18,292 nucleotides of DNA from a virus (lineage: Duplodnaviria; Heunggongvirae; Uroviricota; Caudoviricetes): IMG/VR virus record IMGVR_UViG_2718218361_000001. One strand, written 5' to 3'. The notes under the pieces are model-generated. The model saw only the letters and a program-made list of their open reading frames with translations, was not told where the DNA came from and made no database searches. Made by a program: the position numbers and the translations under genes. Positions 1 through 18,253 of this stretch are shown here, piece after piece. Positions within the stretch are counted from its first letter, which is position 1. Every line of letters begins with the position of its first letter.

Positions 1-1374
1 ATGTTAGTTAGTAAAAACAACGAATTTAACACTAGCTCATTTATAGATAGTGGAAATTGTAATGAAAGAAAATCTTCTGAATCCATGGAGCTACTAGCTT
101 ATAGTATTATAAATTTAATTTGTAAGAAAGCTGCCTCAGGGACGTATCGCGGTGCTCTTGAAACTTTACAAAAAATGATGTCTGAATGTATATATCATGA
201 AGGCAACGCCTTTGTCATTATGGGAGTTGGAGAACAATTAAAACGTATTAAATATGAAGTTGGTGAAAATAACTTAAAGGTATTCAACGTACACTTTAAT
301 AATAATCACGAGTTAGTTAGTTCTGGTGAGCCTGACGTAATATGTTTAAGCAAGCAGGTCTGGGAAAATCTTCTCATTAAACTAAAGCTGGAAAACAATG
401 AAAATGTGTTTTCTGAAACTAAAAAATTATCGAATAAAAATAATGACGATCAGTTTTTTGAATGCGCTAAAAGAAATGAACAGAACCTTTTCGATAATAT
501 AAGAAAAAGTGATTTTCATGTTGGTTTACTTAAGCCAAGTAGTACGCGTAGTGTTATTTTAGAAACGCCGCCAAATGTCTGTATGGAATCACGTAATTCA
601 TATGAAAACAAAATAGATGAGATTTCATCTTTGTCAGAGTCAAAGGAACACCCCATAGATATTCAAGAAAAAAAAGATGCGTTTGTGAATGAGTTCAAGG
701 GGGTATTATTTGATAAAAATACAAGGTCTTCAGAGCTTCTGTTTAATTTTTATGAGTGTTGCTATAAGTTTTTACCAAGAGCTCAGCCTCAAGATAAAAT
801 CGATAGCTATAATTCAGCACTGCAAGCTTTTTCCATTTTTTGTTCATCTACGTTGACACATAATAATATAGGCTTTGATTTCAAATTATTTCCTGAAGTC
901 AAGCTGTCTGGAGAACATCTTGAAACGGTATTCAAATACAAAAATGGCGATGATGTCCGGGAGATAGCCAAAATTAACATTACTCTCCAAAAAGAAGAGG
1001 GTGGTTTATATAATTTACGTGGATTGGATTTTAAGGGGTGCTTCTTTTCTGGACAGAACTTCAGTAACTATGATATTCAATATGTGAACTGGGGAACGTC
1101 ATTGTTTGATGTTGATACTCCGTGTATTTTTAATGCGCCTGCTTACAACAAGAGTAATGAAAAATCATTAAAACCTGTGAGCGAAAACGGTTTAAGTGGA
1201 GTATTGACTGATCGTAATAATAAAATAAAACTCATCACGGGCGTGGCACCATTCGATGATATTTTATTTATGGATGATGACTTTGATGATAGTTCCTCTG
1301 AGGATGATCCCGTTGAGAATAGTCCTGTTGTGACTAGTCCCGTTGTATCAAGTTCTAAAAGCAGTTTTCAATGA
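1..1374 (+). CDS. Hypothetical low-GC protein (457 aa ORF), possibly 5'-truncated by the window edge; short pentapeptide-repeat-like stretch and acidic Ser/Asp-rich C-terminal tail
   Basis: Long uninterrupted ORF in an AT-rich segment. Translation contains YNLRG-LDFKG-CFFSG-QNFSN (pentapeptide-repeat-like) and a DDDFDDSSSEDD tail. ATG sits at position 1 so the true start cannot be confirmed. No recognisable catalytic motif. Confidence 0.55.
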   Translation: MLVSKNNEFNTSSFIDSGNCNERKSSESMELLAYSIINLICKKAASGTYRGALETLQKMMSECIYHEGNAFVIMGVGEQLKRIKYEVGENNLKVFNVHFNNNHELVSSGEPDVICLSKQVWENLLIKLKLENNENVFSETKKLSNKNNDDQFFECAKRNEQNLFDNIRKSDFHVGLLKPSSTRSVILETPPNVCMESRNSYENKIDEISSLSESKEHPIDIQEKKDAFVNEFKGVLFDKNTRSSELLFNFYECCYKFLPRAQPQDKIDSYNSALQAFSIFCSSTLTHNNIGFDFKLFPEVKLSGEHLETVFKYKNGDDVREIAKINITLQKEEGGLYNLRGLDFKGCFFSGQNFSNYDIQYVNWGTSLFDVDTPCIFNAPAYNKSNEKSLKPVSENGLSGVLTDRNNKIKLITGVAPFDDILFMDDDFDDSSSEDDPVENSPVVTSPVVSSSKSSFQ

Positions 1375-1530
1375 TTAATAAATGGCAATTTTTACAAAGA
1401 GATAATAACGTAGATTGAAACAATATGTATTATTGATTGAGTAAACGGGATTATTCTTCACACTACATCCATTTTAGTGTCACTACCAAAGAAAAAGGGG
1501 CTACGTTTTCATGTAACCCCTTGATTTATT

Positions 1531-1643: not shown

Positions 1644-1745
1644 CAGCGTTACGGTGCACCACGCCTGACTGAAGAACTGCGTGCTCAGGGTTACCACTTC
1701 AACGTAAAACCGTGGCAGGAGGTCCGGACTGAAAAAACTGGTCAG
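1644..1745 (+). pseudogene. IS3-family transposase (OrfB-like) fragment
   Basis: Frame translation [22 protein letters not shown] matches, from memory, the conserved [22 protein letters not shown] block of IS911/IS3-type transposases. Only about 30 codons; flanked by stops; no start or RBS. Confidence 0.5.
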
Positions 1746-1758
1746 GACATTATCGGCG

Positions 1759-1880
1759 GTGGACGCACGGGTAGTCTGTAAACCGAACCGACTGGGGCGC
1801 AGTATGTGGCATCTTGTCGTGCTGTTGGAGGAGCTGTGCAAACGTGGTATTAACTTTCGTGCTCTGGCCCAATCTATATT
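1759..1880 (+). pseudogene. Serine recombinase (resolvase/invertase family) internal fragment
   Basis: Translation NRLGRSMWHLVVLLEELCKRGINFRALAQSI resembles the conserved resolvase/invertase block (LDRLGRS...L..L.ERGI.F.SL.DSI). Catalytic N-terminus and C-terminal HTH are absent. Confidence 0.55.
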
Positions 1881-2285: not shown

Positions 2286-5200
2286 ATGAACAGGACCAGT
2301 CCCCATTATTGTCGCCGCTCAGTACTTTCCTTATTGATATCTGCCTTGATATATGCCCCGCCTGGGATGACGGCCTTCACTCCTGATGTTATTGGTGTGG
2401 TAAACGATGAGACTGTAGATGGCAGCCAAAGAGTAGATGAACGAGGTACAACAAATAACACTCATATTATCAACCATGGCCAGCAGAATGTTCATGGCGG
2501 GGTATCTAATGGAAGTCTTATTGAATCGGGTGGATATCAAGATGTAGGAAGTCATAACAATTTTGTGGGGCAGGCTAATAATACAACCATTAACGGAGGA
2601 AGACAGACAATTCATGACGGGGGCATTTCCACCGGTACGATAATCGACAGTGGCAATCAGGACGTTTATACAGGTGGTATCAGCAATGGAACGACAATTA
2701 AGGGTGGTAATTCACACATAAGTGGGGGGACTGCGAATGGAACCATCATTGATGGTGGAGGGCAGAAAGTAACAACTCAGGGGCATGTTGATGGTACAAC
2801 GATAAATAAGTCCGGTTATCAGGACATCACGCAAGGAAGTATTGCAACGAACACAATCATAAATGGTGGACGACAGTATGTTGAACAGAGCACAGTAGGA
2901 ACAACCACCATTAAAAATGGCGGTGAGCAAAGAGTATATGAAAGCCATGCGCTGGACACGACGATTGAAGGTGGAACTCAGTCTCTGAATAATAAGTCAA
3001 CGGCAAAAATACTCAGATCTATTCTGGTGGTACGCAAATTGTTGATTACACCAGCTCCTCGGATGTTATTGAAGTTTATTCCGGTGGCGTGCTTGATGTT
3101 AGTGGTGGTACGGCAACAAATGTTACCCAGCACGATGGTGCAATTTTAAAAACAAACACTAACGGTACGACGGTGAGCGGTACGAATAGTGAAGGTGCAT
3201 TCTCCATCCACAATCACGTGGCAGACAATGTGTTGCTGGAAAACGGTGGTCATTTAGACATAAACGCATATGGTTCGGCAAACAAGACGATTATTAAAGA
3301 TAAAGGAACAATGTCAGTTTTAACGAATGCTAAAGCTGATGCGACCCGAATAGATAACGGCGGGGTAATGGATGTTACCGGAAACGCGACCAATACCATA
3401 ATCAATGGTGGTACACAGAATATTAATAATCATGGTATTGCCACGGGTACCAATATCAACGGCGGAACGCAAAATATCAAGAGCGGCGGGAAAGCTGACA
3501 CGACAATTATATCCTCCGGGAGCCGGCAGGTTGTTGAGAAAGATGGTACGGCAACTGGCAGCAATATTAGCGCCGGAGGCTCGCTGATTGTCTATACCGG
3601 TGGTATTGCACATGGGGTTAACCAGGAGACGGGCAGTGCTTTAGTTGCCAACACGGGCGCAGGGACTGATATTGAAGGATACAACAAGCTCTCTCACTTC
3701 ACTATTACCGGAGGGGAGGCTAATTATGTTGTGCTGGAAAATACCGGCGAACTGACGGTAGTGGCTAAAACCTCGGCGAAAAATACTACCGTTGATGCTG
3801 GCGGTAAGCTGATTGTCCAGAAGGAGGCTAAAACAGATACCACCAGACTTAATAATGGTGGCGTTCTGGAGGTTCAGGACGGTGGTGAGGCTAAGCATGT
3901 TGAGCAACAATCCGGCGGCGCATTAATTGCTTCCACAACTTCCGGAACCCTTATCGAAGGAACCAACAGTTATGGTGATGCTTTCTACATCAGGAATTCA
4001 GAAGCTAAAAATGTAGTGCTGGAAAACGCTGGCTCATTAACAGTCGTCACTGGTTCCCGGGCAGTTGATACGATTATTAATGCCAACGGCAAAATGGATG
4101 TTTATGGAAAAGATGTTGGCACTGTACTCAATAGTGCTGGCACCCAAACAATATATGCCAGTGCCACTTCTGATAAAGCAAATATCAAAGGTGGCAAGCA
4201 AACGGTATATGGATTAGCCACTGAGGCAAATATCGAAAGTGGTGAACAAATTGTTGATGGTGGGTCAACAGAGAAAACACACATCAATGGTGGCACGCAA
4301 ACCGTTCAGAATTATGGTAAGGCAATCAATACCGATATCGTCTCTGGCCTACAACAAATTATGGCAAACGGGACAGCGGAAGGTTCCATTATTAATGGGT
4401 GTTCACAGGTAGTTAATGAGGGCGGTCTGGCTGAAAACTCGGTGCTTAATGACGGCGGCACACTCGATGTGCGGGAGAAAGGCAGCGCAACGGGGATACA
4501 GCAGAGTAGCCAGGACGCTTTGGTTGCAACCACCAGGGCGACGCGGGTCACAGGAACACGCGCGGATGGCGTCGCGTTCAGCATCGAGCAGGGTGCGGCG
4601 AACAATATCCTGCTGGCAAATGGCGGCGTGTTAACCATGGAGTCAGACACCTCTTCTGACAAAACACAGGTCAATACGGGCGGACGGGAGATCGTCAAAA
4701 CAAAAGCCACTGCGACAGGCACGACGCTCACCGGCGGCGAACAAATCGTCGAGGGGGTGGCGAATGAGACAACGATTAACGACGGCGGAATACAAACAGT
4801 TTCAGCTAACGGAGAGGCAATAAAAACAAAGATCAATGAAGGCGGTACGCTGACAGTTAACGATAATGGCAAAGCGACAGATATCGTCCAGAACAGCGGT
4901 GCCGCTCTCCAGACGAGCACGGCTAACGGTATTGAAATCAGCGGTACTCACCAGTACGGCACTTTTTCCATTTCCGGCAATTTAGCGACCAATATGTTGC
5001 TGGAAAATGGCGGTAATTTATTGGTATTAGCAGGTACCGAAGCTCGCGACTCCACGGTTGGCAGCGGTGGAGCCGCCAACGGCAGTTATCGCAGCAACGG
5101 GCTGGGCGGTCACATTGAAACCGGGATGCGATTTACCGATGGTAACTGGAACCTGACGCCGTATGCATCGTTAACGGGGGTTCACCGCTGATAACCCTGA

Positions 5201-5546
5201 ATATCATTTATCCAATGGCATGGAATCGAAATCAGTCGATACCCGCAGTTTATATCGTGAACTGGGTGCAACGCTGAGTTACAACATGCGTCTGGGGAAC
5301 GGTATGGAAGTTGAGCCGTGGCTGAAGGCGGCTGTGCGCAAAGAATTTGTCGATGATAACCGGGTGAAAGTGAATAGTGACGGTAATTTCGTCAATGATT
5401 TGTCGGGCAGACGTGGAATATACCAGGCAGGTATTAAAGCCTCATTCAGCAGTACGTTAAGCGGGCATCTTGGGGTGGGGTATAGCCATGGTGCCGGTGT
5501 GGAATCCCCGTGGAACGGGGTAGCTGGTGTGAACTGGTCGTTCTGA
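2286..5546 (+). pseudogene. Autotransporter adhesin (AIDA-I/self-associating type) disrupted by frameshifts
   Basis: ATG 2286 with GAGGA 8 nt upstream and a signal-peptide-like N-terminus (MNRTSPHYCRRSVLSLLISALIYA). About 900 aa of degenerate passenger repeats (IxGGxQ, NGGxL) spread over three reading frames. Frame changes sit at an A5 tract (3005-3009) and a G5 tract (5176-5180). C-terminus ends in an aromatic-rich barrel-like segment ...GVNWSF, but the barrel part looks short. Confidence 0.65.
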
Positions 5547-6037: not shown

Positions 6038-8371
6038 TTATTTTATTGTTGGCTCATCGCACTTGGGTAGCCAGTCTGCATTACTCTCTTCTTTTAAGGT
6101 GAGGTTAGTCTGCATTCCCTGATTAGTTCGCCGCTTCTCATAATGTAGCCCGTACTCCTTCAGCATAACTGGTAGCCCTTTGCCAAACATTGTCAGGCTG
6201 AGGGTATTTTTATAGCCATTAGCCTCCATGTATACGAGATAAGCATGGTAAAGGTATGTACGTGGCTGGCGCGGGACAATATTGGCGTTTCCCATAAACA
6301 TGCCGTTGGTGTCGGGTAATGCCTCAAGATAGCCACAAAAATCAAATGCTGGATCAGCATCACGCTTGATGGTGAGAGCCTCATCAGAATTCTGCTGCGA
6401 CTGAAGCAATGTTCTGGCACTCATCGGATCACTGAAACGCTGCATGAGCTGGCGAACAATCACAGCAAGTTCTTGAGCAATTTTATCTTTTAGCTGCGGA
6501 TCGCGTTCTTCCGGTGCTATCTGCTCAGGAAAATGCAGAATAACTCTCCGGCGAGACACACCACCACTGCGATCAGTGAAGCGCATAGGATTATTATTTA
6601 CGGCCAGGATAACCGCCGGAATATGTGTTGAATAAGCATTCTGATATTTGGGGTCCACAGATACTGCATCGCCACCGGTTATAGCCTTAAGCCCGGCGCC
6701 ATCGCCGCTCCACTTCTCCTGATCAGGCAGGCGAATAAGAGAAAAACCGATCAGAGCTGCACGTTCTCGCGGGGACTCCAGAGTTTCAATTGTCGCTGAG
6801 GTGGCGTTATCCTCTCCTGCAAGCATCGTTGCAATTTCAGCAAGGATACTTTTGCCACTTCCGCCAGGGCCAGTCACTTCCAGAAAGAGCTGCCAGTCAT
6901 AGCGGTTCGCCAGCACCATAAACAGCGCTGCGAGAATAATGTCGCGTTTTGCTGGCTTGCGCCCGGCTGCCCTGTCCAGCCAGCGCCAGAATGCCGGGGC
7001 ATGAGTTTCAAGCGTTTCCCCATTTACCGGTGGCGTGAAATCAACTTCACACAGGGTACGCAGCCACTTCTCTTTACAGTGCGGACTAAACAGCCCTGTT
7101 CGCGTATCGAGGACGCCATTACGAAAACCGATCAGATGACGTGCCGGATTTTGCTGCTGCGGAACAATTAACTTTAATGTTTCCACCAGTGAGGCAATCT
7201 TTCCTGAGGAAAACGGTGCACCGAGGCGCTGGAAAAGGGCTGCGACATCTCGGGCAAAATCAGACTGAGAAATCACTTTCCACGCCCCAGACTCATAGCG
7301 GGATAAAAGCTGCCCGTTCGGATCAACCGCCAGCGCATCCCTGTAATGCTCCCGAACCCTCTGAGCTTTTTCGCTGACACTCATCGCTGTGAATTCTGCT
7401 TCACTCATCGTGTCGAAAGGACTGGCGTTATGTGGCCTCAAAGCCTCAAGAATTGCCTTCCGGGTGGATTCCTCTCCGTAATGGGCAAGCGCATCATTCC
7501 AGTCACCAAAAACCGGTGGCAGCACAATGTCACACTGACACGCTTTTGCAGCAGCTTCAGCCCTGTTCTGGCCTGAACCATTCAGATCTCGGTCCGCTGC
7601 AATAATTAGCTGATACCCCGGATACTTGTTATGGGCAACGCTGGCCAGAGAAAGAAAGTTGACCGCCGAAAATGCCACCATGACGGCTTCTCCAGTCAGA
7701 TGATGAATGGTAAGCGCCGTGGCGTAGCCTTCCGTAATCCACATTCTTCTTACTGAACTCCCGCCCCCTTCTATCAGATGATAGGCCTCCTTAACCTGAC
7801 CTCCTTTAAGAAAACACTTGCTACCATTGCTACTGATAAGCTGAATATTCACCAGCTCCCCGTCAGCGTTATAGAGCGGGACGATCAAATCACCGGGGCG
7901 GAACATCACCCCACCGGTTTTATGAGCTGAAGTCAGCTCATGGCAAATATGTTCCGGGAAACCTTTATGTGTAAGATAAGTATTTCCGGCAGATTCGCGC
8001 GAGGCTTGCAGCAGTCGCGCGGCAAGTGCTGCCGCTGCATCTTTCCCGCTATTGGTATCGGCGGTTAACGTCCTGACTTCGGAATTAGCTATAGACAGGC
8101 CATGTGTCATTCCATGTATCCTGTCAGCTGCTTCACTGATATCCACATTCAGTGCCCTGGTGACAAGCGCTAAACCATCCCCGGCTCCGCACTGATTGCA
8201 GAACCATGTTCCACGTCCTTCCTGATCGTCGAAGCGAAAACGATCTTTACCGCCACAGACCGGACAAGGCTGATGGCGATTTTTCAATATATTCACGCCC
8301 AGCGCTGGCAGAATCTGAGCCCAGTGACCGCGGGCAGCCTTCACGGCCTGACTGACTTTCATTCCTGACAT
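6038..8371 (-). CDS. P4 alpha-type primase/helicase (phage/plasmid primase, P4 family), 777 aa
   Basis: ATG at 8371 with GAGGGAGAA 7 nt upstream. N-terminal zinc-binding CPVCGGKDRFRF...CNQCG, a primase-like central region, and Walker A GPGGSGKS in the C-terminal NTPase domain. Length equals P4 alpha as I recall it. The ORF track's upstream in-frame Met lacks an RBS. Confidence 0.9.
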   Translation of the reverse strand: MSGMKVSQAVKAARGHWAQILPALGVNILKNRHQPCPVCGGKDRFRFDDQEGRGTWFCNQCGAGDGLALVTRALNVDISEAADRIHGMTHGLSIANSEVRTLTADTNSGKDAAAALAARLLQASRESAGNTYLTHKGFPEHICHELTSAHKTGGVMFRPGDLIVPLYNADGELVNIQLISSNGSKCFLKGGQVKEAYHLIEGGGSSVRRMWITEGYATALTIHHLTGEAVMVAFSAVNFLSLASVAHNKYPGYQLIIAADRDLNGSGQNRAEAAAKACQCDIVLPPVFGDWNDALAHYGEESTRKAILEALRPHNASPFDTMSEAEFTAMSVSEKAQRVREHYRDALAVDPNGQLLSRYESGAWKVISQSDFARDVAALFQRLGAPFSSGKIASLVETLKLIVPQQQNPARHLIGFRNGVLDTRTGLFSPHCKEKWLRTLCEVDFTPPVNGETLETHAPAFWRWLDRAAGRKPAKRDIILAALFMVLANRYDWQLFLEVTGPGGSGKSILAEIATMLAGEDNATSATIETLESPRERAALIGFSLIRLPDQEKWSGDGAGLKAITGGDAVSVDPKYQNAYSTHIPAVILAVNNNPMRFTDRSGGVSRRRVILHFPEQIAPEERDPQLKDKIAQELAVIVRQLMQRFSDPMSARTLLQSQQNSDEALTIKRDADPAFDFCGYLEALPDTNGMFMGNANIVPRQPRTYLYHAYLVYMEANGYKNTLSLTMFGKGLPVMLKEYGLHYEKRRTNQGMQTNLTLKEESNADWLPKCDEPTIK

Positions 8372-8385
8372 GATGCAGTTCTCCC

Positions 8386-8709
8386 TCAGTGTAAAACTGG
8401 CTTTTTGATGTGACGGACGCATAACTCATCCATTACGGCTATTCCGAGCTGGGAGAGTGCGGGACAGGACATTAGAGGGCCGGATTCCATCAGGTCTGAA
8501 AGCAGGGCGCAGGCGATTTCCATGCCTTTTGTTTGCCCGTGCTGTCGCAGATAAAATCCTTCAAGCTCACGGGCAATAGCGGTTTCAATTTCATCCAGAG
8601 TCAGCTGCAGGTGGCGGTTTTGCTGATGGCAGGCACTCAGCCATGCGCAGGCTACCGCGCGGCGATACAACGCTACCCGAAGTGAAAGGGAAAGAGTGCG
8701 TGATTTCAT
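8386..8709 (-). CDS. Hypothetical protein (107 aa), immediately upstream of the primase
   Basis: ATG at 8709 with GGAGG 7 nt upstream. Start overlaps the stop of the preceding gene (ATGA). Stop lies 15 nt before the primase start. Confidence 0.6.
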
Positions 8710-8930
8710 TGCACCACCTCCATGTTCATCAGGTCATCCTGGCAACGTTGTACCACGCCATCAAGCTGCTCTGTCATCAGATAAATCAGGGAAACCAGTT
8801 GCTCACATTGAGCATTGGCAGGTTTTTCGTAGCAATCCTGAAGAACAGCCATTCCGGTGACAAGCTCCCCCACGTTACGAAGATGCTTCAGGCGGACAAT
8901 ATCGTCATAAGAGATTGCGGCGTGATTCAT
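8706..8930 (-). CDS. Hypothetical protein (74 aa)
   Basis: Internal ATG at 8930 with GGGAGG 7 nt upstream. Start overlaps the stop of the upstream 63-aa ORF. The longer ORF-track version (87 aa) lacks an RBS. Confidence 0.55.
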
Positions 8931-9121
8931 CACATCACCTCCCGGACAGGCAGGCGAGCAGCAAGGCAAAGCACATACTCATGGACCAGTGAAAGACGTG
9001 CATGATACTCATCGCTGGCGACAATACGCAGCATACTGATACGTGGTTTACGTTCTGCACGACGAACGGCGGCAAAAACAAATATAAATTGAGGATGTGA
9101 TGGGGCGAGGATCGTAGCCAT
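8930..9121 (-). CDS. Hypothetical small protein (63 aa), first gene of the coupled small-ORF cluster
   Basis: ATG at 9121 with GGAG 9 nt upstream. It is the C-terminal 63 codons of a 197-aa ORF whose upstream part has no RBS and a GC-rich, structured character. Confidence 0.4.
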
Positions 9122-9324
9122 AAGGGCAATCTCCAATAAGTAGCGGTTATTGCCACCACCAGAGCTGCAAATCTCATGGGTGATGGCCCGGACGGGGTTT
9201 GCAGTACCGGCCTTATTGGAAACCGGCCAGCCCGAAGGCTGCCCCGCCCGGACCACCATTATCTGACAGGAGCCACGGTGTAAGCACCACAGCCCGAAAA
9301 ATAGGTGTGCCTGAGCAACGACAT

Positions 9325-9346
9325 AAAAAAACACGCTCGACGCGTG
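9325..9346 (-). terminator. Candidate rho-independent terminator between the AlpA-like gene and the small-ORF/primase operon
   Basis: On the minus strand a CACGC-gtcga-GCGTG hairpin (9332-9346) is followed by a U7 run (A7 at 9325-9331 on plus). Stem is only 5 bp. Confidence 0.4.
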
Positions 9347-9474
9347 CTGTGTCGCCAATAAGTTACACGGGCTGCAAATCCCGGCTGCCGATTTTGCGGC
9401 AGCAGAAAAACTATAACTGGAAAGCTTGCCAGGACGCAAGCCACAAAAAAAGAGATGAGACTGCAAAGCCAGAT

Positions 9475-9735
9475 TCACGCATGGTCTCCTTGCTCGCGGG
9501 CTGCAATTCGCGCCGCCATCCATGCATTGACCTCCGACTGTACCCAGGCAACATTTTTTCCACCCAGGGAGATCTGCTGCGGGAAGGCATCACGGCTGAT
9601 AAGGTCGTAGATGGTTGAACGGGATAGCCCGCAAAGGTGCATCACTTCAGGTAATCGTATGAAGCGCTCCTGCTCAGTCGGAACCGGGAGCACCGGAGCA
9701 GCTGGTGCTGGGGTGGAAACGGAAATAGTATGCAT
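9475..9735 (-). CDS. AlpA/Vis-family phage transcriptional regulator (excisionase-like HTH), 86 aa
   Basis: ATG at 9735 with AGAGAGG 7 nt upstream. Translation [46 protein letters not shown] has the AlpA-type HTH signature. Confidence 0.8.
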
Positions 9736-10270
9736 CTCGCTACCTCTCTAATATGTTTTCAGTAGTCCGGACAATTCCATCCGGATTCAGGTAGTTCCTT
9801 ATTATGTTCATATAAGCGGCTCGCGCATGCTTTATTTAATTAGAGTGAAATATTGACTTCTCAAAAAATAAAACAGCTAAAAACCGGATAAAACGGACAA
9901 AAACAAATCATTCCCTCATGGAATATAATAAGGAGCTTCAAGAATAAAAAAGTCTATTACACCAAGCAGGATCGCCGCTCAAGTCTGTACCAGACCATAT
10001 CATTCCGGGCGTTACATCATAAGGATGAAAACAGCGCCGGAATAATAAAAGGGCCAAAAAACGTTCATAAAAAACAGTTCATCATATGTATTAATTAAGT
10101 TAATGGCTAAAAAAATTAAATTACCCGCATCCTTCCGAATTTATCCGGATGTGTTTAGTGAGCATCAGACAGATTCATTTTTATGGATATTTTCCTGAAA
10201 TGCAACCGAGTGTAGGGAGGTTAAGTGTTGAATTTTTAAACAGACATAAGACACATTTTATACTGTATAT

Positions 10271-10484
10271 TGAATAGTGTTGAATACGTGTGAATAGTGG
10301 TGAGGAATAAAAATCCAGTAATAAACTGAAATAAATATAGCGATTTATATGAAAAACAAATATAAGTTTAAATTTATCTCTGTGAACAGTCATGAACAGT
10401 AGATGACCACTTTTATTTAAACCCTACACTCCTTAACCACATGTATTTACTATTCTTTTATGAAAGTGAACAGTAGTGAATAGT
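10271..10484. repeat. ori-like iteron cluster in the AT-rich divergent region
   Basis: About seven copies of GTGAA(C/T)AGT at 10271, 10281, 10291, 10382, 10393, 10466, 10476. Their reverse complement contains TGTTCAC/TATTCAC, the same core as the repeats at 5898-5975. The two clusters are about 4.4-4.5 kb apart. Confidence 0.5.
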
Positions 10485-10549
10485 ATGTATTAAAGGAAGG
10501 GTGAAGATCAGACATGACACCTTTCTCTGGCTAGCCAGAACAAGGTCAT

Positions 10550-10567
10550 TGTTCAGTCACTGGCACA
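10550..10567 (+). promoter_or_regulatory. Candidate Ogr/Delta-dependent late promoter element (TGT-N12-ACA dyad) upstream of the Sid-like gene
   Basis: TGT(10550-10552)-tcagtcactggc-ACA(10565-10567), 73-90 nt upstream of the ATG at 10640. P2/P4 late promoters carry such a dyad near -55 (established knowledge). No clear -35; -10 is weak. Confidence 0.4.
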
Positions 10568-10639
10568 ATCCTCATCGGTAGTGCGCTTGTATGGGCACCG
10601 GCACAATTGACACAACAACAAAACACTACCGGAGCAGCC

Positions 10640-11392
10640 ATGACAACTGTTAACCAGATCCCTGATGCAAACATTACACCCTCCCTCCCACCGAAAATTC
10701 GCGAAGCGGTAGAAAAAGTTAAAGCAGCAAAAGCTGTCTGGCAGGAAGAACGGCGAATACAAACTGAAGCCGCTGCAATGACTGAAACTATCCGTAAACG
10801 TCAGGAAGATACAAAAACGGAGACGCAGGCGCTTAATGATGAATGGCGAAACCTGTTTCGTGAGAATCAGGGGAATATGACGCCACGAATGAAAAAACTG
10901 CGGGCAGAAATCGCCCTGGGACGCGAAACACTTGATGAGTTCGAAGATTTGCTTGAAGCTCACGCCGCAGAAAAAGAATTCCTGCCCTGGAAAACTGCGG
11001 ATGCTGCAAACCGCTACATCAGCGAACATAACCGGCTGATTGAAACTCATGCAGAGTGGCTCTGGAATGAGTTTATGAAGGAACACGGCCAGAAACTTAT
11101 TCAGATCCTTGGATTGCTGAAAATGACTCTGGGGCGAAGCGCTTCTTCCGTTATCGGCGTAGTTCATACCGTAAACGACCCCGAAAGTGTGCTGAAGCAA
11201 TTTATCAGCGAGCAACTCACCGCTCCGGCACTGTCCTGTAACGTATCTTCAACGGATGTTATTGCCCTGCCGGGGATTAGCATTTATGCGGACGATAAAG
11301 CCCTACAGGATGCCAGACAATCACCCAGCCCTGCAGCGCGTTCCCGGATGCTTAAACAGCGTGACATGGTTAAAGGGGAAGAGAAGGGATGA
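10640..11392 (+). CDS. Sid/Psu-family protein, candidate capsid size-determination (Sid-like), 250 aa
   Basis: ATG at 10640 with GGAG 5 nt upstream (ORF-track start 10607 is a TTG without RBS). First gene of the late operon as in P4. Shares the NEFMKEHGQKL block with the Psu-like product (ENFMSEHGNAL) and MTPRMKKLRAEIA with the paralog at 12237 (VTPEMKALRAEYL). Stop overlaps the next start (ATGA). Confidence 0.7.
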   Translation: MTTVNQIPDANITPSLPPKIREAVEKVKAAKAVWQEERRIQTEAAAMTETIRKRQEDTKTETQALNDEWRNLFRENQGNMTPRMKKLRAEIALGRETLDEFEDLLEAHAAEKEFLPWKTADAANRYISEHNRLIETHAEWLWNEFMKEHGQKLIQILGLLKMTLGRSASSVIGVVHTVNDPESVLKQFISEQLTAPALSCNVSSTDVIALPGISIYADDKALQDARQSPSPAARSRMLKQRDMVKGEEKG

Positions 11393-11943
11393 ATCCTGGA
11401 AACATTACTAAGGAAGCTCTCAACAACTATCGCGCGGAGATAAAAAGCTGGCTGACACTACGTAATGTGCAAAGTACCAGCCAACTTCGTCTGGCGGCTC
11501 TGCTGGATACTGAAGAAAAACCGGCAGCATATGCCAGCCAGCTTGAGAATCTTCGTGAGCGTCTTGCTCTCCTCGAATGGCAGATTAACTGCGCCGCTAG
11601 GGACGGTCTTTATGCTCACCAGATTGTGCTGGAAAGCTGTGTTACAAGCGCAACTGAAAACTTCATGAGCGAGCATGGTAATGCACTCACTGACGCTCTG
11701 GCTCCTTTTCTTTGCGCACCATACGGGCTTGAGGCGGCAATGAAAATATTACGCACCGCTGTAGTCCGACAAACCGAAATCCGTACTCCTGTAATTTCAG
11801 CAGCATATAAGAGCGTTATCGACGAAACCGGATTAACGGTGGATGCATCAATGCGAGCTGATGCTTCAGCCATTTTCACCCCGGCAAAACATAAAGTTTT
11901 TCTGGCCCGCCTCAACAGGCTTAATGAAAAAGGAGGGTACTGA
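11389..11943 (+). CDS. psu: Psu-like protein (polarity suppression / capsid decoration family), 184 aa
   Basis: ATG at 11389 preceded by a purine-rich stretch. Blocks EHGNALTDALAP and FTPAKHKVFLAR resemble my recollection of P4 Psu (QHGTALAAALAP, FTPAQNMIFSRK). Size close to P4 Psu (190 aa). Confidence 0.75.
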   Translation: MNPGNITKEALNNYRAEIKSWLTLRNVQSTSQLRLAALLDTEEKPAAYASQLENLRERLALLEWQINCAARDGLYAHQIVLESCVTSATENFMSEHGNALTDALAPFLCAPYGLEAAMKILRTAVVRQTEIRTPVISAAYKSVIDETGLTVDASMRADASAIFTPAKHKVFLARLNRLNEKGGY

Positions 11944-11944
11944 T

Positions 11945-12217
11945 ATGGCCCTGAAATGTCCTGAATGTGGCACGGTCGCACACGCCAGAACCAGCGCCTA
12001 TGAAGCTCCATCGGTTAAACGCTCATGGTATCAGTGCCAGAATCTTGAATGCTCCTGCACATTTACTGCCCTGGAAAGTGTGGACACGATAATTATGAAG
12101 CCCCATAAACCAGTGGCGCCTGAACCTGAATCACAGAGCGATTCTCTTGTACGTCAGCCGCATACACTGGGCCGCTACGGTTCAGCCTGTACCCTTAAAG
12201 ACCGTCATGCACAATAA
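11945..12217 (+). CDS. Ogr/Delta-family zinc-finger late transcription activator, 90 aa (single domain)
   Basis: ATG at 11945 with GGAGG 8 nt upstream, 1 nt after the Psu stop. CPECGTVAHARTS...WYQCQNLECSCTFTALESV matches the Ogr/Delta signature (recalled P2 Ogr: CPLCQHAAHARTS...YHQCQNVNCSATFITYESV). Confidence 0.85.
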   Translation: MALKCPECGTVAHARTSAYEAPSVKRSWYQCQNLECSCTFTALESVDTIIMKPHKPVAPEPESQSDSLVRQPHTLGRYGSACTLKDRHAQ

Positions 12218-12236
12218 ATTGGGGAGGAACAAAAAT

Positions 12237-13049
12237 ATGACAGAACAACAATTGACGGAAAACCAGATTCAGGCCGCAACCGGACACGTAGTAACACTCC
12301 TCGCGAGGGCAAAAAAACCGCTTCAGGATGCGGATTGGCTCATGAATTTGCCTGCAAATGAAATAGCCCGCGAGACGGAAAAACTGACAAAAAGCCTTTC
12401 CTCCGACTGGCAGTCCCGAATTATCGACCTTTACCAAAAAATGCAGGCCTGGGTGGAGGCCAGACAGGCCGAAGAAGCAGCCATTGAGAACCTTCGGGCT
12501 CTGCGCCAGCATCAGACCGAAACTGAGCAGGCCAGCAAAGACAATCGGGCGCAGTTCAGGGAACTGCTTAACCAGAGCGGCGGCATCGTAACGCCGGAGA
12601 TGAAAGCTCTCCGGGCTGAGTATCTGGAACAACAGGAAACAGCCACAGAACTCGCCGGGCTGATTACTGAAAAAGAAGATCAGCTGCCGGTACTGGCTCA
12701 AGCGACCACGCGTAAAGCAAACGTCTATATAAACTGCCATCATGGCATCACTGAGGAGCGTATCGATGAGCTTTTACGAGACTTTTTTATTTTCCACGGT
12801 GCCGAATTGAGCGGCCTGCTCAGGATGAAGTACAGACAATTTGAGCGATATAGCTCAGCACATATACCGGGCATTATTGAAGGCACAAATGATGCAGATA
12901 CGCTGTATCGTGAATTTATCCTGAATCTAATGCTGAAGTGGACGAATGAAATATTACCGTTAAGATTCCGGGACGACGTGATGAGCCTGACCGGTTCAGC
13001 TCCGGTATCAGGATCGCATGACGACAGAAAAAAAAGTAAGCTGTTTTGA
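12237..13049 (+). CDS. Second Sid/Psu-family paralog, 270 aa, function unassigned
   Basis: ATG at 12237 with GGGGAGG 9 nt upstream (ORF-track start 12147 lacks an RBS). Coiled-coil-like; shares sequence blocks with the Sid-like gene at 10640. Followed by a strong terminator. Confidence 0.7.
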   Translation: MTEQQLTENQIQAATGHVVTLLARAKKPLQDADWLMNLPANEIARETEKLTKSLSSDWQSRIIDLYQKMQAWVEARQAEEAAIENLRALRQHQTETEQASKDNRAQFRELLNQSGGIVTPEMKALRAEYLEQQETATELAGLITEKEDQLPVLAQATTRKANVYINCHHGITEERIDELLRDFFIFHGAELSGLLRMKYRQFERYSSAHIPGIIEGTNDADTLYREFILNLMLKWTNEILPLRFRDDVMSLTGSAPVSGSHDDRKKSKLF

Positions 13050-13073
13050 CCTGAACAGAAAAGCTCACTTAAG

Positions 13074-13095
13074 CCCGGCCAGTGCCGGGTTTTTT
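13074..13095 (+). terminator. Rho-independent terminator of the late operon
   Basis: CCCGGC-cagt-GCCGGG hairpin (13074-13089) followed by T6 (13090-13095), 25 nt after the stop at 13047-13049. Confidence 0.7.
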
Positions 13096-13236
13096 GATGT
13101 CTATAGCCTGAGTGCATGTCTATACTGCATGAAATCGCATGACTTTATGCACTTGCATTTTTACTTCCCAGACCAGATAAGGCGCGGTTTAGAGCCTATC
13201 ATGCAACTGCATGAAAACCACTCCCTAAAGCGGGCA

Positions 13237-13255
13237 GGCGTGGCGGGGCTACGAG
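13237..13255. other. Candidate cos-like site (P2/186-family cohesive-end-like sequence)
   Basis: GGCGTGGCGGGG matches the first 12 nt of the P2/186-type 19-nt cohesive end as I recall it (GGCG[A/T]GGCGGGGAAAGCA-). The remaining 7 nt diverge. Position between the late operon and the cargo matches where cos sits in P4. Confidence 0.3.
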
Positions 13256-13629
13256 CGCGCGCTTCGAGGTAAAAGGATGCCGAGCATACAACTCATCGAT
13301 AATGCGGTAGGGTAAATAAGGGGGGGGGCTTGCTATTTTGTACGCTGTAAGGAAGCAAAAGGAAGTCAGTGAGCTAGGGTTAAACAACCCAGCGTATGAG
13401 GTTAAAGTCTAAAATTGAGAACAGCCGTATATGGAGTAATAAAAAGGTGAGGTTGAATCTTTGAGAGGCTGTTTATCAAGGCATAAACCTCTATAGGATG
13501 CATGGTTTTGCATGTGTTTAAATGTTACGCCAATTTAGGCCAACGCCTTTAGGGCGTGGCCTATTTCCATCTTTGCAACTCCATCAAATGCGTCTTCATG
13601 ATGAAGATGAGGATTAGGCGGAAATTGAA

Positions 13630-15399
13630 TTAAAGACGCCACAGACTCTCAAGATCGAGCGTGTCACTTTGCGGTGCACTTTCTTCAGAAAGTCTATCGA
13701 TCTGCACAAGAAGCGGAGTATGAAATGCTGTTCCCGAAATTATGCATGCGCCTGGAGGAAGGGTAGGTATAAGTGTTCTGGATGCTGCATCTAATGTACT
13801 TAAGGTGTTTTTAAGAAGGTAAAGGTCGTTTTCATTTACCAAGCGATGTATGAAATAATTATGAAGTTGTGATACGATTGTTGGCGATATATCAAATGGT
13901 CGCTGGCTTGAAATAGTTACAAAATAACCAAACTTCCTACCTTCCTTTATTATCTCCTCAAATAATTCAAGTCGATAATCTTTCCAAGTCTCAGCCTCCC
14001 TCACAGAGCTTTCGGAAAGAATGTTGTGAGCTTCATCTATTATTAAATGAAAACTTTCTTTTTTGTTGTCCGAAGACTTGTGTTCTATGAAGGAACATTT
14101 CGCAATCATCATCGGAATCGTTTTTTTTATGGTTTGATTGCATTCTTTGAGAGAGATTATGGATATTGGTTTATAGCTTTGTTGAGCGCGGTTTATTTCT
14201 ATAACCTTTGCTAGAGATGAGCTCATTGCTATTATTTTGTTTATCAAAGGATATATGTGATCATATTGAACATAGTTTCTGGATACAGAATTTATTAATT
14301 GCAGTGTTGCACGTATAGCAATTTCATCAAATACACTAGTAACATGGAATTGGCTATTGTATGTTGCTTGAGTGTGTTTTAAAACTTCAGCAGTAGTGTC
14401 AAGCCAACCCGAAGGGTGTGTATATTTTTCTTGGTTTGAATGCCAAGTAAAGAGAGAGAGTTCATCTCGTATCTTTTGTTGATCGTTCTCATCGAAATAA
14501 GGCAGTAGACTTTTTAATAAATTAACGGTCTCTTTGTGAGGATTTGTTCCAAACATTATTTCAATTGTTCTTTTTAAATATGTGTTAAGATCGTCATCAT
14601 ACTTTAACTTGCTCTTTATTAAATGTGTAAGAAATGGTTTTTGTGTTTTCTCGGTTGCAGAGAATAAAACTGACAACAGTTCATCATCCCAAAATTCTTT
14701 TTCACCGAAATATATCTTATCACCATCTTTTTTTGTGCTAAGTTTTGTGGAGTGACATAGTTCTGGAAAGGAATTCTCTAATGTCCCATATTCACCATTG
14801 AAATCAATCAATACGAAATTTGACTTATCGATCAATTGTTGTTTGTTTTCAATTCTATTGAAAAGTGATTGATATATTTTTGCTAGAGTATTTGACTTTC
14901 CACTTCCTGTATTTCCAAAAATACCTATATGAGAATTAAAAACACCGTTTATGGGAATGTTTATTGGTAATTCCTCTAGCATGGATTTGCCAATGTTAAT
15001 GAGCGGAGTTTTTGTATTTTTGCTAAAACTATAGATTTCAGATATTTTATCATCCGAAATTAAATAAAGTCTATCATTTATCATTGGGAGATATTTTATT
15101 CCAGAGTAGAATTTACCCTCAAAAAAATACCCGAGAATATTTAGTTCAACGAATCTTTCATATTTTTTCTGCTCAATGTCATCAGTACGAATGTTAAAGT
15201 TCTCAACAATTTCCTCACCTATGATCTTACCTACAATGTCCTGATAACCTTTACGAACTAATACAAATTCATTTATTGATATACCACGCAATATTTTTCC
15301 ATTGTGGAAGTATGTTGATTGGAACAAGTCATGGTTTATTTTTGCTTTGACAGTGGTTCCTTTTACTTGGGTCACTTTACCTATATTCAGTTCGTCCAT
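13630..15399 (-). CDS. HerA-like (FtsK/HerA superfamily, DUF87-type) ATPase, 589 aa; second gene of the cargo pair
   Basis: ATG at 15399 with AGGAGA 9 nt upstream (ORF-track start 15408 is a TTG). Walker A GIFGNTGSGKSNT and Walker B HLIIDEAHN; N-terminal beta-rich region before the ATPase core. About 28-30% GC by hand count. Overlaps the upstream gene by 13 nt. Confidence 0.85.
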   Translation of the reverse strand: MDELNIGKVTQVKGTTVKAKINHDLFQSTYFHNGKILRGISINEFVLVRKGYQDIVGKIIGEEIVENFNIRTDDIEQKKYERFVELNILGYFFEGKFYSGIKYLPMINDRLYLISDDKISEIYSFSKNTKTPLINIGKSMLEELPINIPINGVFNSHIGIFGNTGSGKSNTLAKIYQSLFNRIENKQQLIDKSNFVLIDFNGEYGTLENSFPELCHSTKLSTKKDGDKIYFGEKEFWDDELLSVLFSATEKTQKPFLTHLIKSKLKYDDDLNTYLKRTIEIMFGTNPHKETVNLLKSLLPYFDENDQQKIRDELSLFTWHSNQEKYTHPSGWLDTTAEVLKHTQATYNSQFHVTSVFDEIAIRATLQLINSVSRNYVQYDHIYPLINKIIAMSSSLAKVIEINRAQQSYKPISIISLKECNQTIKKTIPMMIAKCSFIEHKSSDNKKESFHLIIDEAHNILSESSVREAETWKDYRLELFEEIIKEGRKFGYFVTISSQRPFDISPTIVSQLHNYFIHRLVNENDLYLLKNTLSTLDAASRTLIPTLPPGACIISGTAFHTPLLVQIDRLSEESAPQSDTLDLESLWRL

Positions 15400-16502
15400 G
15401 TTACCCAATCTCCTGTTTCTGATTTGAAAATTCTATCAATAAAAGTATCAAAAGAAATTTTATGATCAACTTCTTTAGGATAAATGAAGGTTATTCTGGG
15501 GTCATTTACTGTATTATTTATATCTTGCTTGCTTTGATTGTTGTAGCAAAAAACAAATACTTTTAGTGTTGGATTACTTAAAGATCTTTTTATTATTTCA
15601 AGAATGTGCTCGTCTTGAAATGAAAACCCAAAACAAATTAATACAGTTTGTGGTTTCTCTAATTCATAGCTTAATAATCTTAAGCTCTGATAGTAGTGTT
15701 GCTGAAATACTGTTTCTGAAAACTTTTCTTTGGTCGGATTAACTATCGCGAGTGAGTTATAGTATGATTTGAATTCTTCAAGAGAATTTTGGTCATTAGC
15801 ATTTAAATCCAAGTAATCAGCAAGATCATCGTTAGTTGTATTTAGGGTAATTACTAAATCATCTATGGTTTTATCTGTCTCTAAATTTATTAATTCAGGT
15901 GAAACGCTTGGGTAGTTGATGCTTATTGTTTCATTCTCATCTCTTTTCCATGAGACCGAACCATGCATTTTAATTAAATTGATAGTTGGTAACTCATGTT
16001 TGTACATATCATGAGTTCCTTGATGCCAAGTAGTAATATGAAAATTACTAATGTTTAATCTTCTGTTTTTAAAACCTATAGCACCATCATTGAAATGGAA
16101 TGTTTTCTTAGCTAATGCATTGTCTGCTGCTGTTTCAAAAAAAAGATCATAGTTAGTTGTGAAAATATTGGCTCGTCTTATTTGATTGGAACCTTTTTTT
16201 TCTAATAAAGTAACAAGTTCATCTAGAAAATCTGTATAGCTATTTATTGTTGAGGTGTATTTTTTGTTTTCTACACTTGGCTCAATGCAAAATGTTTTTC
16301 TAATGATTTTATTGAAATAAGAACATAAGATAAAATCCTTAACATCGATACAATCTTTATGCGTTAATAATGTCTCATAAGTGGTGTTTTCAGCAAGCCA
16401 CAGCGTTGGTATATACGATGCTGAAGCTCCTGAGCCAAATAGAAAGTTAATATTTTTATCATAAATATTTGATGCTTTGCATGGGAATTCTCTCGTGCTC
16501 AT
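15387..16502 (-). CDS. SIR2-like (sirtuin-fold, predicted NADase) protein, 371 aa; first gene of the cargo pair
   Basis: ATG at 16502 with AAGGA 8 nt upstream, only 10 bp after the integrase stop. Motifs FLFGSGASAS (glycine-rich loop), TTNYD and MHGS (His-Gly) are typical of SIR2-family domains. AT-rich like its partner. Confidence 0.85.
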   Translation of the reverse strand: MSTREFPCKASNIYDKNINFLFGSGASASYIPTLWLAENTTYETLLTHKDCIDVKDFILCSYFNKIIRKTFCIEPSVENKKYTSTINSYTDFLDELVTLLEKKGSNQIRRANIFTTNYDLFFETAADNALAKKTFHFNDGAIGFKNRRLNISNFHITTWHQGTHDMYKHELPTINLIKMHGSVSWKRDENETISINYPSVSPELINLETDKTIDDLVITLNTTNDDLADYLDLNANDQNSLEEFKSYYNSLAIVNPTKEKFSETVFQQHYYQSLRLLSYELEKPQTVLICFGFSFQDEHILEIIKRSLSNPTLKVFVFCYNNQSKQDINNTVNDPRITFIYPKEVDHKISFDTFIDRIFKSETGDWVTWTN

Positions 16503-16512
16503 TTTTATATCC

Positions 16513-17706
16513 TTACTTGCTATTCACTATGAAATTGCCCCACCAATTCATAAGGCCCTTTCTTTTTTCAAGGTAAGTGGAACGATTGTATGCTCTGCGA
16601 ACCTCATTCTTCTCAATGTGAGCAAGCGCTGCTTCAATCACATCTGAATTTAAACCAGCTTCATTCATTGCTGTACTCGCTATAGAGCGTAAACCATGTG
16701 CAACTAATTTACCCCCATATCCAATCCGTTTTAAAGCAGCATTTGCCGTCTGGCTATTCATTGGTTGCTTTGGGTCATTCCGACTCGGAAAAACATGTTC
16801 ACGATGCGCACTGATAGGCTTCATAACATCAAGAATCTCTAATGCCTGAAGAGATAGTGGAACTATGTGCTCGCGCTTAGCCTTCATACGTTCGGCTGGA
16901 ATGGTCCAGAGCTTTGCTTCGAGATCGATCTCTGCCCACCGAGTACCAGATGCTTCAGAAGGACGCACAAGGGTCAGAAGCTGCCATTCAATGAGACAGC
17001 GAGTCGTAACAGATAGATTTGACATTACTAGAGAACGCATCAGCTTTGGTAATTCTTCTGGCCGAAGCGTCGGCATATTTTGTTTTTTTGGCTTTTCAAA
17101 GGCCATTCCAACACCTGATGCTGGGTTTGCATCAATCAGACCAGTGTTTACGGCATAAATCATTATCTCGTTAATACGCTGCACCAGTCGACGTACCGTC
17201 TCAAGCGCTCCACGAGCTTTTATTGGCTCAAGGGCTTCAACCAATGTTCGTGCTTTGATTTGCTGAACAGGGATTTCACCGATTGCAGGAAATACGTCTT
17301 TCTCCAGTGAGCGCCAAATGTCTTTTGCGTAGTCAGGGGTAACGCTTTTGCTTTTTAGCTTGAACCAGTTAGCGGCGACCGTTGAAAAAATACTTTCCAG
17401 AGCGATTTGCTGCTCTTCCTCTGCGGCTTCGGCTTGAATTTGTGGGTCGATTTTGTTGGCTAGTAAAGCAAGGTAATCCGCTCTTAGACTTCGAGCATCA
17501 GCAAGTGAAAGGGAGGGGAAGGCTCCGAGCCCCATCATGGTCCGCTGCTTTGTTGCCGGACGTAGATAGCGAAAGCGCCATAGTTTCTTGCCGCTGGTTT
17601 TCACTAGCAGGAAAAGTCCATCGCCATCATGCAGCGTTAGATCCTTATCGATTGCTTTTGCGCGCAGAACTTCGGTGTTGGTCAGGGGGCGTGTTGTCCG
17701 TGCCAC
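16513..17706 (-). CDS. int: P4-type tyrosine integrase (IntA-like), 397 aa
   Basis: GTG start at 17706 with AAGGAG 8 nt upstream. N-terminus MARTTRPLT...DGDGLFLLV and C-terminal HGLRSIAST...VRRAYNRSTY (H-x-x-R and catalytic Tyr) resemble my recollection of CP4-57 IntA. Lies next to the ssrA 3' end in the same orientation. Confidence 0.92.
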   Translation of the reverse strand: MARTTRPLTNTEVLRAKAIDKDLTLHDGDGLFLLVKTSGKKLWRFRYLRPATKQRTMMGLGAFPSLSLADARSLRADYLALLANKIDPQIQAEAAEEEQQIALESIFSTVAANWFKLKSKSVTPDYAKDIWRSLEKDVFPAIGEIPVQQIKARTLVEALEPIKARGALETVRRLVQRINEIMIYAVNTGLIDANPASGVGMAFEKPKKQNMPTLRPEELPKLMRSLVMSNLSVTTRCLIEWQLLTLVRPSEASGTRWAEIDLEAKLWTIPAERMKAKREHIVPLSLQALEILDVMKPISAHREHVFPSRNDPKQPMNSQTANAALKRIGYGGKLVAHGLRSIASTAMNEAGLNSDVIEAALAHIEKNEVRRAYNRSTYLEKRKGLMNWWGNFIVNSK

Positions 17707-17890: not shown

Positions 17891-18253
17891 TGGTGGAGCT
17901 GGCGGGAGTTGAACCCGCGTCCGAAATTCCTACATCCTCGGTACTACATGCTTAGTCAGTCTTTACATTCGCTTGCCAGCTGCGGACGGACACGCCACTA
18001 ACAAACTAGCCTGATTAAGTTTTAACGCTTCAACCCCAGGCAGGGCTTCCACGCGATCTCTTTTGGGTTTGACCTCTCTTGATCCCCGTCCTAAGAGCGG
18101 AGGCTAGGGAGAGAGGGCTCTAAGCAGGTTATTAAGCTGCTAAAGCGTAGTTTTCGTCGTTTGCGACTATTTTTTGCGGCTTTTTACGAGGCCAACCGCC
18201 CCTCGGCATGCACCTTGGGTTTCGCAAATCCCGTCGAATCCAGAATCAGCCCC
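17891..18253 (-). ncRNA. ssrA: tmRNA (SsrA), 363 nt
   Basis: Reverse complement begins GGGGCTGATTCTGGATTCGACGGG and ends GGTTCAACTCCCGCCAGCTCCACCA, matching E. coli ssrA as I recall it. Contains GCAAACGACGAAAACTACGCTTTAGCAGCTTAA, which encodes the ANDENYALAA tag peptide. Confidence 0.95.

Follow-up and report, generated by a model that had tools for sequence, protein, structure and literature searches.

An intact allele of ypjCB, a low-GC accessory gene of Escherichia coli with a constrained C-terminal module and a short pentapeptide-type element

The window that we analysed, the whole stretch of 18,292 nucleotides, opens with an open reading frame on the plus strand (positions 1..1374) that starts with ATG and encodes 457 amino acids and a stop codon. 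A preliminary description of this DNA had reported a low-GC open reading frame at 1-1374 with a pentapeptide-like run and an acidic Ser/Asp tail. All three features were borne out, and what had gone unrecognised was that this is a named gene, ypjCB, present here as an intact allele. The protein matched the NCBIfam model NF050179 (YpjCB) with 935.9 bits against a cut-off of 650, residues 1-449 aligning with model positions 1-465 of 465. It also matched two Pfam families, DUF5507 (PF17612; residues 1-160, 312.9 bits) and DUF5508 (PF17621; residues 195-457, 619 bits), both of which lie here within a single polypeptide. E. coli strains S21 and H14 have chromosomal DNA that is 100% identical, with this reading frame annotated as WP_047657028.1, ‘YpjCB family protein’.

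The reading frame is the unbroken form of the K-12 pseudogenes ypjC (b2650) and ypjB (b2649). Since the K-12 copy is split by a TAG at codon 161, DUF5507 and DUF5508 match the fragments YpjC and YpjB, and the two families are the two halves of one gene. Two Pfam domains of unknown function can thus be traced back to a single K-12 pseudogene that was cut in half, and wild strains have the intact protein. The gene is already known and named, and is a low-GC accessory gene that is uncharacterised.

The window starts at the ATG itself, and the upstream DNA was therefore taken from a 100%-identical genome (L001). This extension addressed the possibility, raised in the preliminary description, that the reading frame is the 3' part of a longer gene. 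It proved complete, as judged by an in-frame TAG two codons 5' of the ATG, a ribosome-binding site (GAGGA) about 7 nt before the ATG and the end-to-end match to NF050179; moreover, the 300 nt upstream of the ATG in L001 are full of stops in the frame of the gene. About 120 nt after the stop codon lies a terminator-like GC-rich hairpin with a 10-bp stem (1495..1522, corresponding to 21495-21522 of L001), which was called on the minus strand, the T-run being weaker on the plus strand.

The gene was found in 3076 of 5426 complete E. coli genomes (~57%), always on the chromosome and in nearly all of them as a single copy. In every allele inspected the gene order was the same: ygaQ, ileY, ypjCB, a remnant of a pin-type recombinase, and ypjA/ehaD. 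The remnant of this site-specific recombinase (1711-1878, plus strand) lacks both ends and is kept at this place in all strains inspected. The ypjA/ehaD autotransporter adhesin gene (2286-5546, plus strand) is frameshifted and truncated in this strain, a 108-aa beta-barrel reading frame standing separately at 5220-5546; in K-12 and other strains, ypjA/ehaD is one 4.6-kb reading frame. On the other side, about 750 nt upstream of the first base of the window (L001 19170-19245), ileY encodes a tRNA with a CAT anticodon, annotated as tRNA-Ile, a reader of AUA. The ileY flanks occur in 3094 genomes, the other genomes matching only a 76-nt tRNA paralogue. Because the flanks and ypjCB are found in practically equal numbers of genomes, the tRNA and ypjCB form one present-or-absent block. 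The islet thus appears to carry its own rare-codon tRNA. Among the isoleucine codons of ypjCB, 10 of 26 are ATA.

Outside this chromosomal site the gene is scarcely seen. A scan of one genome per GTDB species recovered it only from E. coli and Shigella, besides one obvious contaminant contig, and 50,697 phage genomes contained no match. A plasmid collection gave four matches, all in E. coli records; three of these records are chromosome-sized (4.8-4.9 Mb) and the fourth match is a 26% partial one on a 245-kb plasmid. In IMG/VR, 27 contigs predicted to be proviruses contain ypjCB, at the same locus and mostly at the very end of the contig, positions that are consistent with over-extended provirus calls. 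YpjCB is thus an orphan family restricted to E. coli and Shigella.

The base composition of the gene differs from its surroundings. Its GC content is 0.338, falling to 0.288 when third codon positions alone are counted; the window as a whole has 0.44 and neighbouring core genes ~0.5. The horizontal acquisition that the preliminary description had judged probable is supported by this low GC content, by the adjoining tRNA gene, by the presence or absence of the block as a unit in 57% of E. coli genomes, and by the binding of Hha (PMC2408971). The gene was acquired horizontally, together with the rare-codon tRNA. Hha is a partner of H-NS, the silencing protein. It binds the ypjC region, and the transcription of ypjC changes with Hha, being induced (PMC2408971); such binding fits a silenced, AT-rich foreign gene. 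Deletion of ypjC in MG1655 F' slightly improved the colonisation of biofilms by a pathogen; expressing the gene constitutively made no difference, and in strain 55989 no mutant could be obtained (PMC3646849). Elsewhere ypjC is merely listed as a pseudogene (PMC5811629, PMC6928379), and the literature reports no function for ypjC or ypjCB.

Alleles of ypjCB are mosaic, and their divergence reaches ~10% at the DNA level and 15-20% at the protein level, high values for E. coli. DNA identity between the window allele and that of K-12 is 98.2%. At codon 161 (481..483) the former has CAG (Gln), in place of the TAG that splits the K-12-type allele into ypjC and ypjB. The two differ at 22 codons, 17 of which lie within codons 6-47, and 16 of those 17 differences are non-synonymous. 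The backbone of the window allele is of the K-12 type, combined with Gln161 and with a divergent 5' patch (codons 6-47) whose nearest counterparts occur in other allele lineages.

To examine how selection acts along the gene, we compared nine alleles, chosen by their spread of identity and hence not at random. The overall dN/dS was 0.73, with ~1.0 for codons 1-244 as well as for the tail. In terms of pN/pS, residues 1-244 gave 0.9-1.1 and the tail (residues 416-449) 0.89, in contrast to 0.27 for residues 245-290, 0.54 for 291-330, 0.34 for 331-380 and 0.41 for 381-415. Synonymous divergence was normal across residues 245-415. This uneven profile indicates that the part whose sequence matters is residues 245-415. 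Among at least 410 substitutions in these nine alleles, we counted one nonsense change, the K-12 stop, where ~17 would be expected under neutrality (P ~8e-7). All length differences between alleles were in frame, the proteins ranging from 449 to 492 aa, and 15-82 stops occur in the five alternative frames of this DNA. From the depletion of nonsense changes and the in-frame insertions and deletions, it follows that ypjCB has been maintained as a coding sequence. The gene is under selection as a coding gene, and the constraint is confined to residues 245-415. We are highly confident in this descriptive part of our account, namely that the window holds an intact allele of a real coding accessory gene that lies in an islet and encodes a constrained module.

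The gene is nevertheless dispensable, since ~43% of complete E. coli genomes are without it and a single nonsense mutation inactivates it in roughly half of its carriers. The latter fraction is an extrapolation: all the genomes examined within the ~98% identity band had the codon-161 stop (six matches and K-12, plus three GTDB representatives), and 19 of 40 evenly spaced rows of the genome listing fall in this band. In several strains, ypjCB is also interrupted by an IS1 or IS903 insertion. An orphan of this kind, confined to its species and clearly retained there for coding but missing or disrupted in a large part of it, offers a convenient case for studying the maintenance of accessory genes whose function is unknown.

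The variable half of the protein begins with a Ser/Asn-rich, hypervariable N-terminus (residues 1-45; 1..135, plus strand; pN/pS 1.06). Serine makes up 18% of the first 50 residues; disorder is predicted up to about residue 25, and the structure model contains no secondary structure in residues 1-25. The rest of DUF5507 (136..480, plus strand) forms a putative alpha/beta region with a pN/pS of 0.89-0.96. The allele alignment contains an invariant block here at about residues 48-99, and the AlphaFold2 (AF2) model of the region is of low confidence (pLDDT 24-44). It is followed by a variable linker (residues 161-244; 481..732, plus strand; pN/pS 1.10), a hotspot of in-frame insertions in which some alleles carry 25 or 35 additional residues, and the pairwise amino acid difference is 0.25-0.31.

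We found no hydrophobic segment, the maximum 19-residue Kyte-Doolittle mean being 0.87, and YpjCB accordingly has no recognisable Sec signal and no membrane span. The protein (pI 5.0, net charge -17) is thus predicted to be soluble, with neither a signal peptide nor a membrane segment. We also applied three composition rules for type III secretion signals: a serine content above 10% over residues 1-50, Pro or an aliphatic residue at position 3 or 4, and residues 1-12 free of acidic side chains. These rules reportedly stem from work on Pseudomonas effectors. All three held in 9 of 21 alleles, compared with 2 of 33 neighbouring proteins, and the rules are non-specific. The remaining alleles miss by one Glu, and the window allele departs from one rule through Glu8. 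As a sign of a type III signal, this composition is suggestive only.

At the opposite end, the acidic, serine-rich C-terminus noted at the outset is confirmed. The Asp/Ser tail (residues 416-457; 1246..1371, plus strand) has 9 Asp, 2 Glu and 10 Ser among its 42 residues, a net charge of -10.2 and a pI of 4.05, and displays a period-5 self-similarity. Within it, an imperfect 15-nt tandem repeat (1321-1350, plus strand) encodes SPVVT/SPVVS. The repeat copy number and the position of the stop vary among alleles, which end in ...SPVVSSSKSSFQ or in ...NSPLV and include forms of 449 and 457 aa; these differences suggest slippage. By eye, we considered short motifs of eukaryotic type in the tail, namely a CK2-type SSSEDD, an FxxI LIR-like core, an FFAT-like motif and a clathrin box, none of which fits its strict consensus. 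The same applies to the likeness of PFDDILF and MDDDFDD to the C-terminal tail of SSB.

Between the linker and the tail lies the conserved C-terminal module (residues 245-415; 733..1245, plus strand), with the pN/pS of 0.27-0.54 described above. It comprises, by prediction, a helical hairpin with an invariant NFYECCY, a three-stranded beta-meander and a pentapeptide-type region. An AF2 model cropped to residues 225-400 had a mean pLDDT of 62, reaching 72-82 over residues 294-364, and placed beta-bridges at about every fifth residue along residues 337-363, after the hairpin and the meander. The four pentapeptide-like repeats first noticed in the sequence (YNLRG, LDFKG, CFFSG and QNFSN) are real and extend to seven in-register units at residues 337-371 (1009..1113, plus strand), the further units being YDIQY, VNWGT and SLFDV. 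Together they would make roughly two turns of a possible four-sided beta-solenoid. When scored against the pattern A(D/N)(L/F)xx, none of 2000 shuffles of the protein reached the seven-unit run, and 67 of 2000 reached the score of the four originally quoted units (residues 337-356) alone. Residues 341-360 have the lowest diversity in the protein (pairwise difference 0.011).

The resemblance to known pentapeptide-repeat proteins is partial. As in the members of PF00805, such as Qnr, MfpA and AlbG, which fold into a right-handed quadrilateral beta-helix, YpjCB has tandem units in one register, with a central L/F/I/W and D/N just before it. However, at the inward-facing i-2 positions YpjCB has bulky residues (Y, L, Q, Y) where Ala, Cys, Ser or Thr are usual. 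The Pfam Pentapeptide model PF00805 scored below threshold, with 15.4 bits (E 0.014, cut-off 20.2) on the segment alone and 12.2 bits on the C-terminal half, as did PF13576 (14.3 versus 27). Coil-on-coil similarity at an offset of 20 was weak, being reached by 269 of 20000 shuffles. Among 177,635 PDB sequences, the best match of a profile of the module was the Qnr protein 3pss, aligned in register with an E-value of 0.56. Thus, of the resemblance that had been proposed, the run itself stood, being real and the most conserved part of the protein, while it stayed below the Pfam threshold and brought no fold match. In our reading, the run is a short pentapeptide-type element, non-canonical and about two turns long, which by Pfam’s own criterion is no member of the family.

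Searches for relatives returned the family itself. An exhaustive phmmer search of 1.84 billion representative proteins recovered one full-length cluster, all from E. coli or Shigella, and fragments; a 5.8-billion protein index contained no relative outside the YpjCB family, and neither did Pfam, NCBIfam, PHROGs or PADLOC. Within PHROGs, the protein matches phrog_30093. In PADLOC-DB 2.0, no family matched at E <= 1, and the PDB sequences, searched with the single protein and with profiles, gave no match at E <= 0.5. Homology to a housekeeping family, which would have spoken against the preliminary description, was likewise searched for and not found. Two matches were set aside: a 799-aa PA14-repeat protein (phmmer E 6.5e-4), in which ‘GCYYSDQNFTN’ recurs four times and which we judged a chance match inflated by the repeats, and the chemokine CCL7, aligned with ECCYKFLPRAQPQDKIDSY over 22 residues at a chance-level E-value of 1.3. 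Foldseek, run with both models, found no significant structural relative (E 0.013-0.1, TM ~0.2).

What might such a protein do? As the preliminary description had remarked, there is no diagnostic catalytic motif, and we could detect neither a catalytic motif nor an enzyme fold. Given this, YpjCB would most likely bind a partner through its conserved module and acidic tail; we hold such a non-catalytic, binding mode of action with about even confidence. Among binding roles, we tentatively favour an effector-like one, possible though doubtful, in which YpjCB would be exported independently of Sec and would then act on a host or competitor cell. This reading is favoured because of the replaceable, Ser/Asn-rich N-terminus, the pentapeptide element, and a pattern of silencing, loss and pseudogenisation like that of other relic E. 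coli effector genes. The first 244 residues and the tail are almost free to vary, and purifying selection holds residues 245-415; under the proposed mechanism, partner binding would proceed through that module together with the tail.

The comparison behind this proposal is with the pentapeptide type III effectors (Salmonella PipB/PipB2 and SopA; E. coli NleL and the EspX family). These are encoded by low-GC islet genes, carry a pentapeptide element and a Ser-rich N-terminus, lack a Sec signal, and often decay in strains without an injectisome. YpjCB shares the low-GC islet and the enteric host and likewise combines a pentapeptide element and a Ser-rich N-terminus with the lack of a Sec signal. 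In contrast to these effectors, it has no detectable sequence homology to them and its repeat is far shorter; reading the sequence, we also found neither a HECT-like domain nor the LFNEF motif of PipB2. The link to secreted effectors that had been drawn from the pentapeptide run is only an analogy, and the exhaustive HMMER search revealed no homology to an effector family. Our best explanation as a whole, a blend of the descriptive, binding and effector claims, is in our estimation evenly balanced between holding and failing. If the C-terminal module is a binding device delivered to other cells, YpjCB would constitute a new E. coli effector family. There is a slim chance that it represents more, being the founder of an exported effector class that is new and specific to E. 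coli, or else an intracellular mimic; a minimal two-turn pentapeptide solenoid and the acidic tail would then be the working part, borne by a freely evolving N-terminal half, and the half-broken state of the gene across the species would record the recent loss of the delivery system or of the target. We consider the importance of the finding modest, and nothing suggests a new kind of mechanism.

Several other explanations were weighed against the effector-like binding role. In the first, the pentapeptide resemblance is incidental, and residues 291-380 form a different, mixed beta domain (an RNase H-like or ASKHA-type meander), perhaps that of a divergent enzyme or nucleotide-binding protein. 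The top Foldseek matches of both models indeed belong to the RNase H-like/ASKHA group (MMLV RT, IscB RuvC, EndoV, the Hsp70 NBD, hexokinase and FtsA), and both the sub-threshold Pentapeptide score and the bulky i-2 positions agree with it. These structural matches are, however, of the insignificant kind given above, with ~40-90 columns aligned that fall mostly in one meander, and no conserved DEDD-like or P-loop motif was seen. Furthermore, the period-5 pattern beats 2000 of 2000 shuffles and the model places a beta-bridge every five residues. We regard this alternative as rather unlikely.

A second possibility is that YpjCB acts inside the cell, in a phage-host or DNA-enzyme conflict. The solenoid and the tail would act as mimics of nucleic acid, in the manner of Qnr and MfpA towards gyrase, or of an acidic protein tail such as the SSB C-terminus, and would thereby block or decoy a DNA-binding protein. 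The overall charge of -17, with -10 in the tail, and the in-register match to Qnr as the best PDB sequence speak for it; an arms race would also fit the fast evolution, in which half of the protein has a pN/pS close to 1, and the mosaic alleles. The neighbouring integration hotspot at ssrA, with a SIR2-HerA defence pair among its contents in this window, points the same way. Against this, YpjCB has no PADLOC match and no partner gene, and, unlike mobile defence genes, it occupies a single chromosomal site in one species, is not found on phages and has a 26% fragment as its only genuine plasmid match. Its solenoid spans only ~35 residues, compared with ~200, as a dimer, in Qnr and MfpA, and this region by itself contributes a charge of just -3.3. 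We thus find such mimicry quite improbable.

We give similarly little probability to a third explanation, in which ypjCB is a decaying, functionless relic of an old island that some lineages have not yet destroyed. The dN/dS of 0.73 overall and ~1.0 over the first 244 codons and the tail would be expected of such a relic, as would the K-12-type nonsense allele in every genome examined from a band holding about half of the evenly spaced listing, the IS1 or IS903 insertions and the absence from 43% of genomes. The strong depletion of nonsense changes (1 versus ~17, P ~8e-7, in alleles chosen by identity spread) argues otherwise, as do the strictly in-frame length differences in DNA whose other five frames hold 15-82 stops, and the pN/pS of 0.27-0.54 over residues 245-415 at normal synonymous divergence. 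Finally, that ypjCB is a phage gene carried as cargo by the CP4-57 prophage was suggested by the phrog_30093 match, the 27 IMG/VR contigs and older literature placing the region close to CP4-57 (PMC2408971), but we rejected this reading as highly improbable, since a P4-like element replaces CP4-57 in the window while ypjCB and its neighbours are unchanged, the IMG/VR contigs mostly carry the gene at their very end, the 50,697 phage genomes contain no match, and ypjCB co-varies with ileY and not with the prophage.

The element that occupies the place of the K-12 CP4-57 is a P4-like satellite prophage (~6038-17706) encoding a primase-helicase, an Icd-like protein, Psu, a Delta/Ogr zinc finger and an integrase. 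It adjoins ssrA, the tmRNA gene (17891-18253, minus strand). Between the P4-type integrase and the rest of the satellite, that is, in a defence hotspot, sit two minus-strand genes (13630-16502) that encode a HerA ATPase (592 aa; PADLOC HerA, 4.5e-200) and a SIR2 protein (371 aa; PADLOC SIR2, 2.7e-66). Judged by these profile matches, they are a SIR2-HerA anti-phage pair. The two genes overlap by 22 nt and have a GC content of ~0.30. The variable region that holds this pair also contains, directly following the Delta/Ogr gene, a hypothetical reading frame of ~270-300 aa (12147-13049, plus strand), which had no PADLOC match and could be another cargo gene of the hotspot. Within the P4-like element, the GC content dips sharply to 0.31 at 10001-10500, between divergent regulatory genes: a helix-turn-helix gene ends at 9735 and the next annotated gene runs from 10640.
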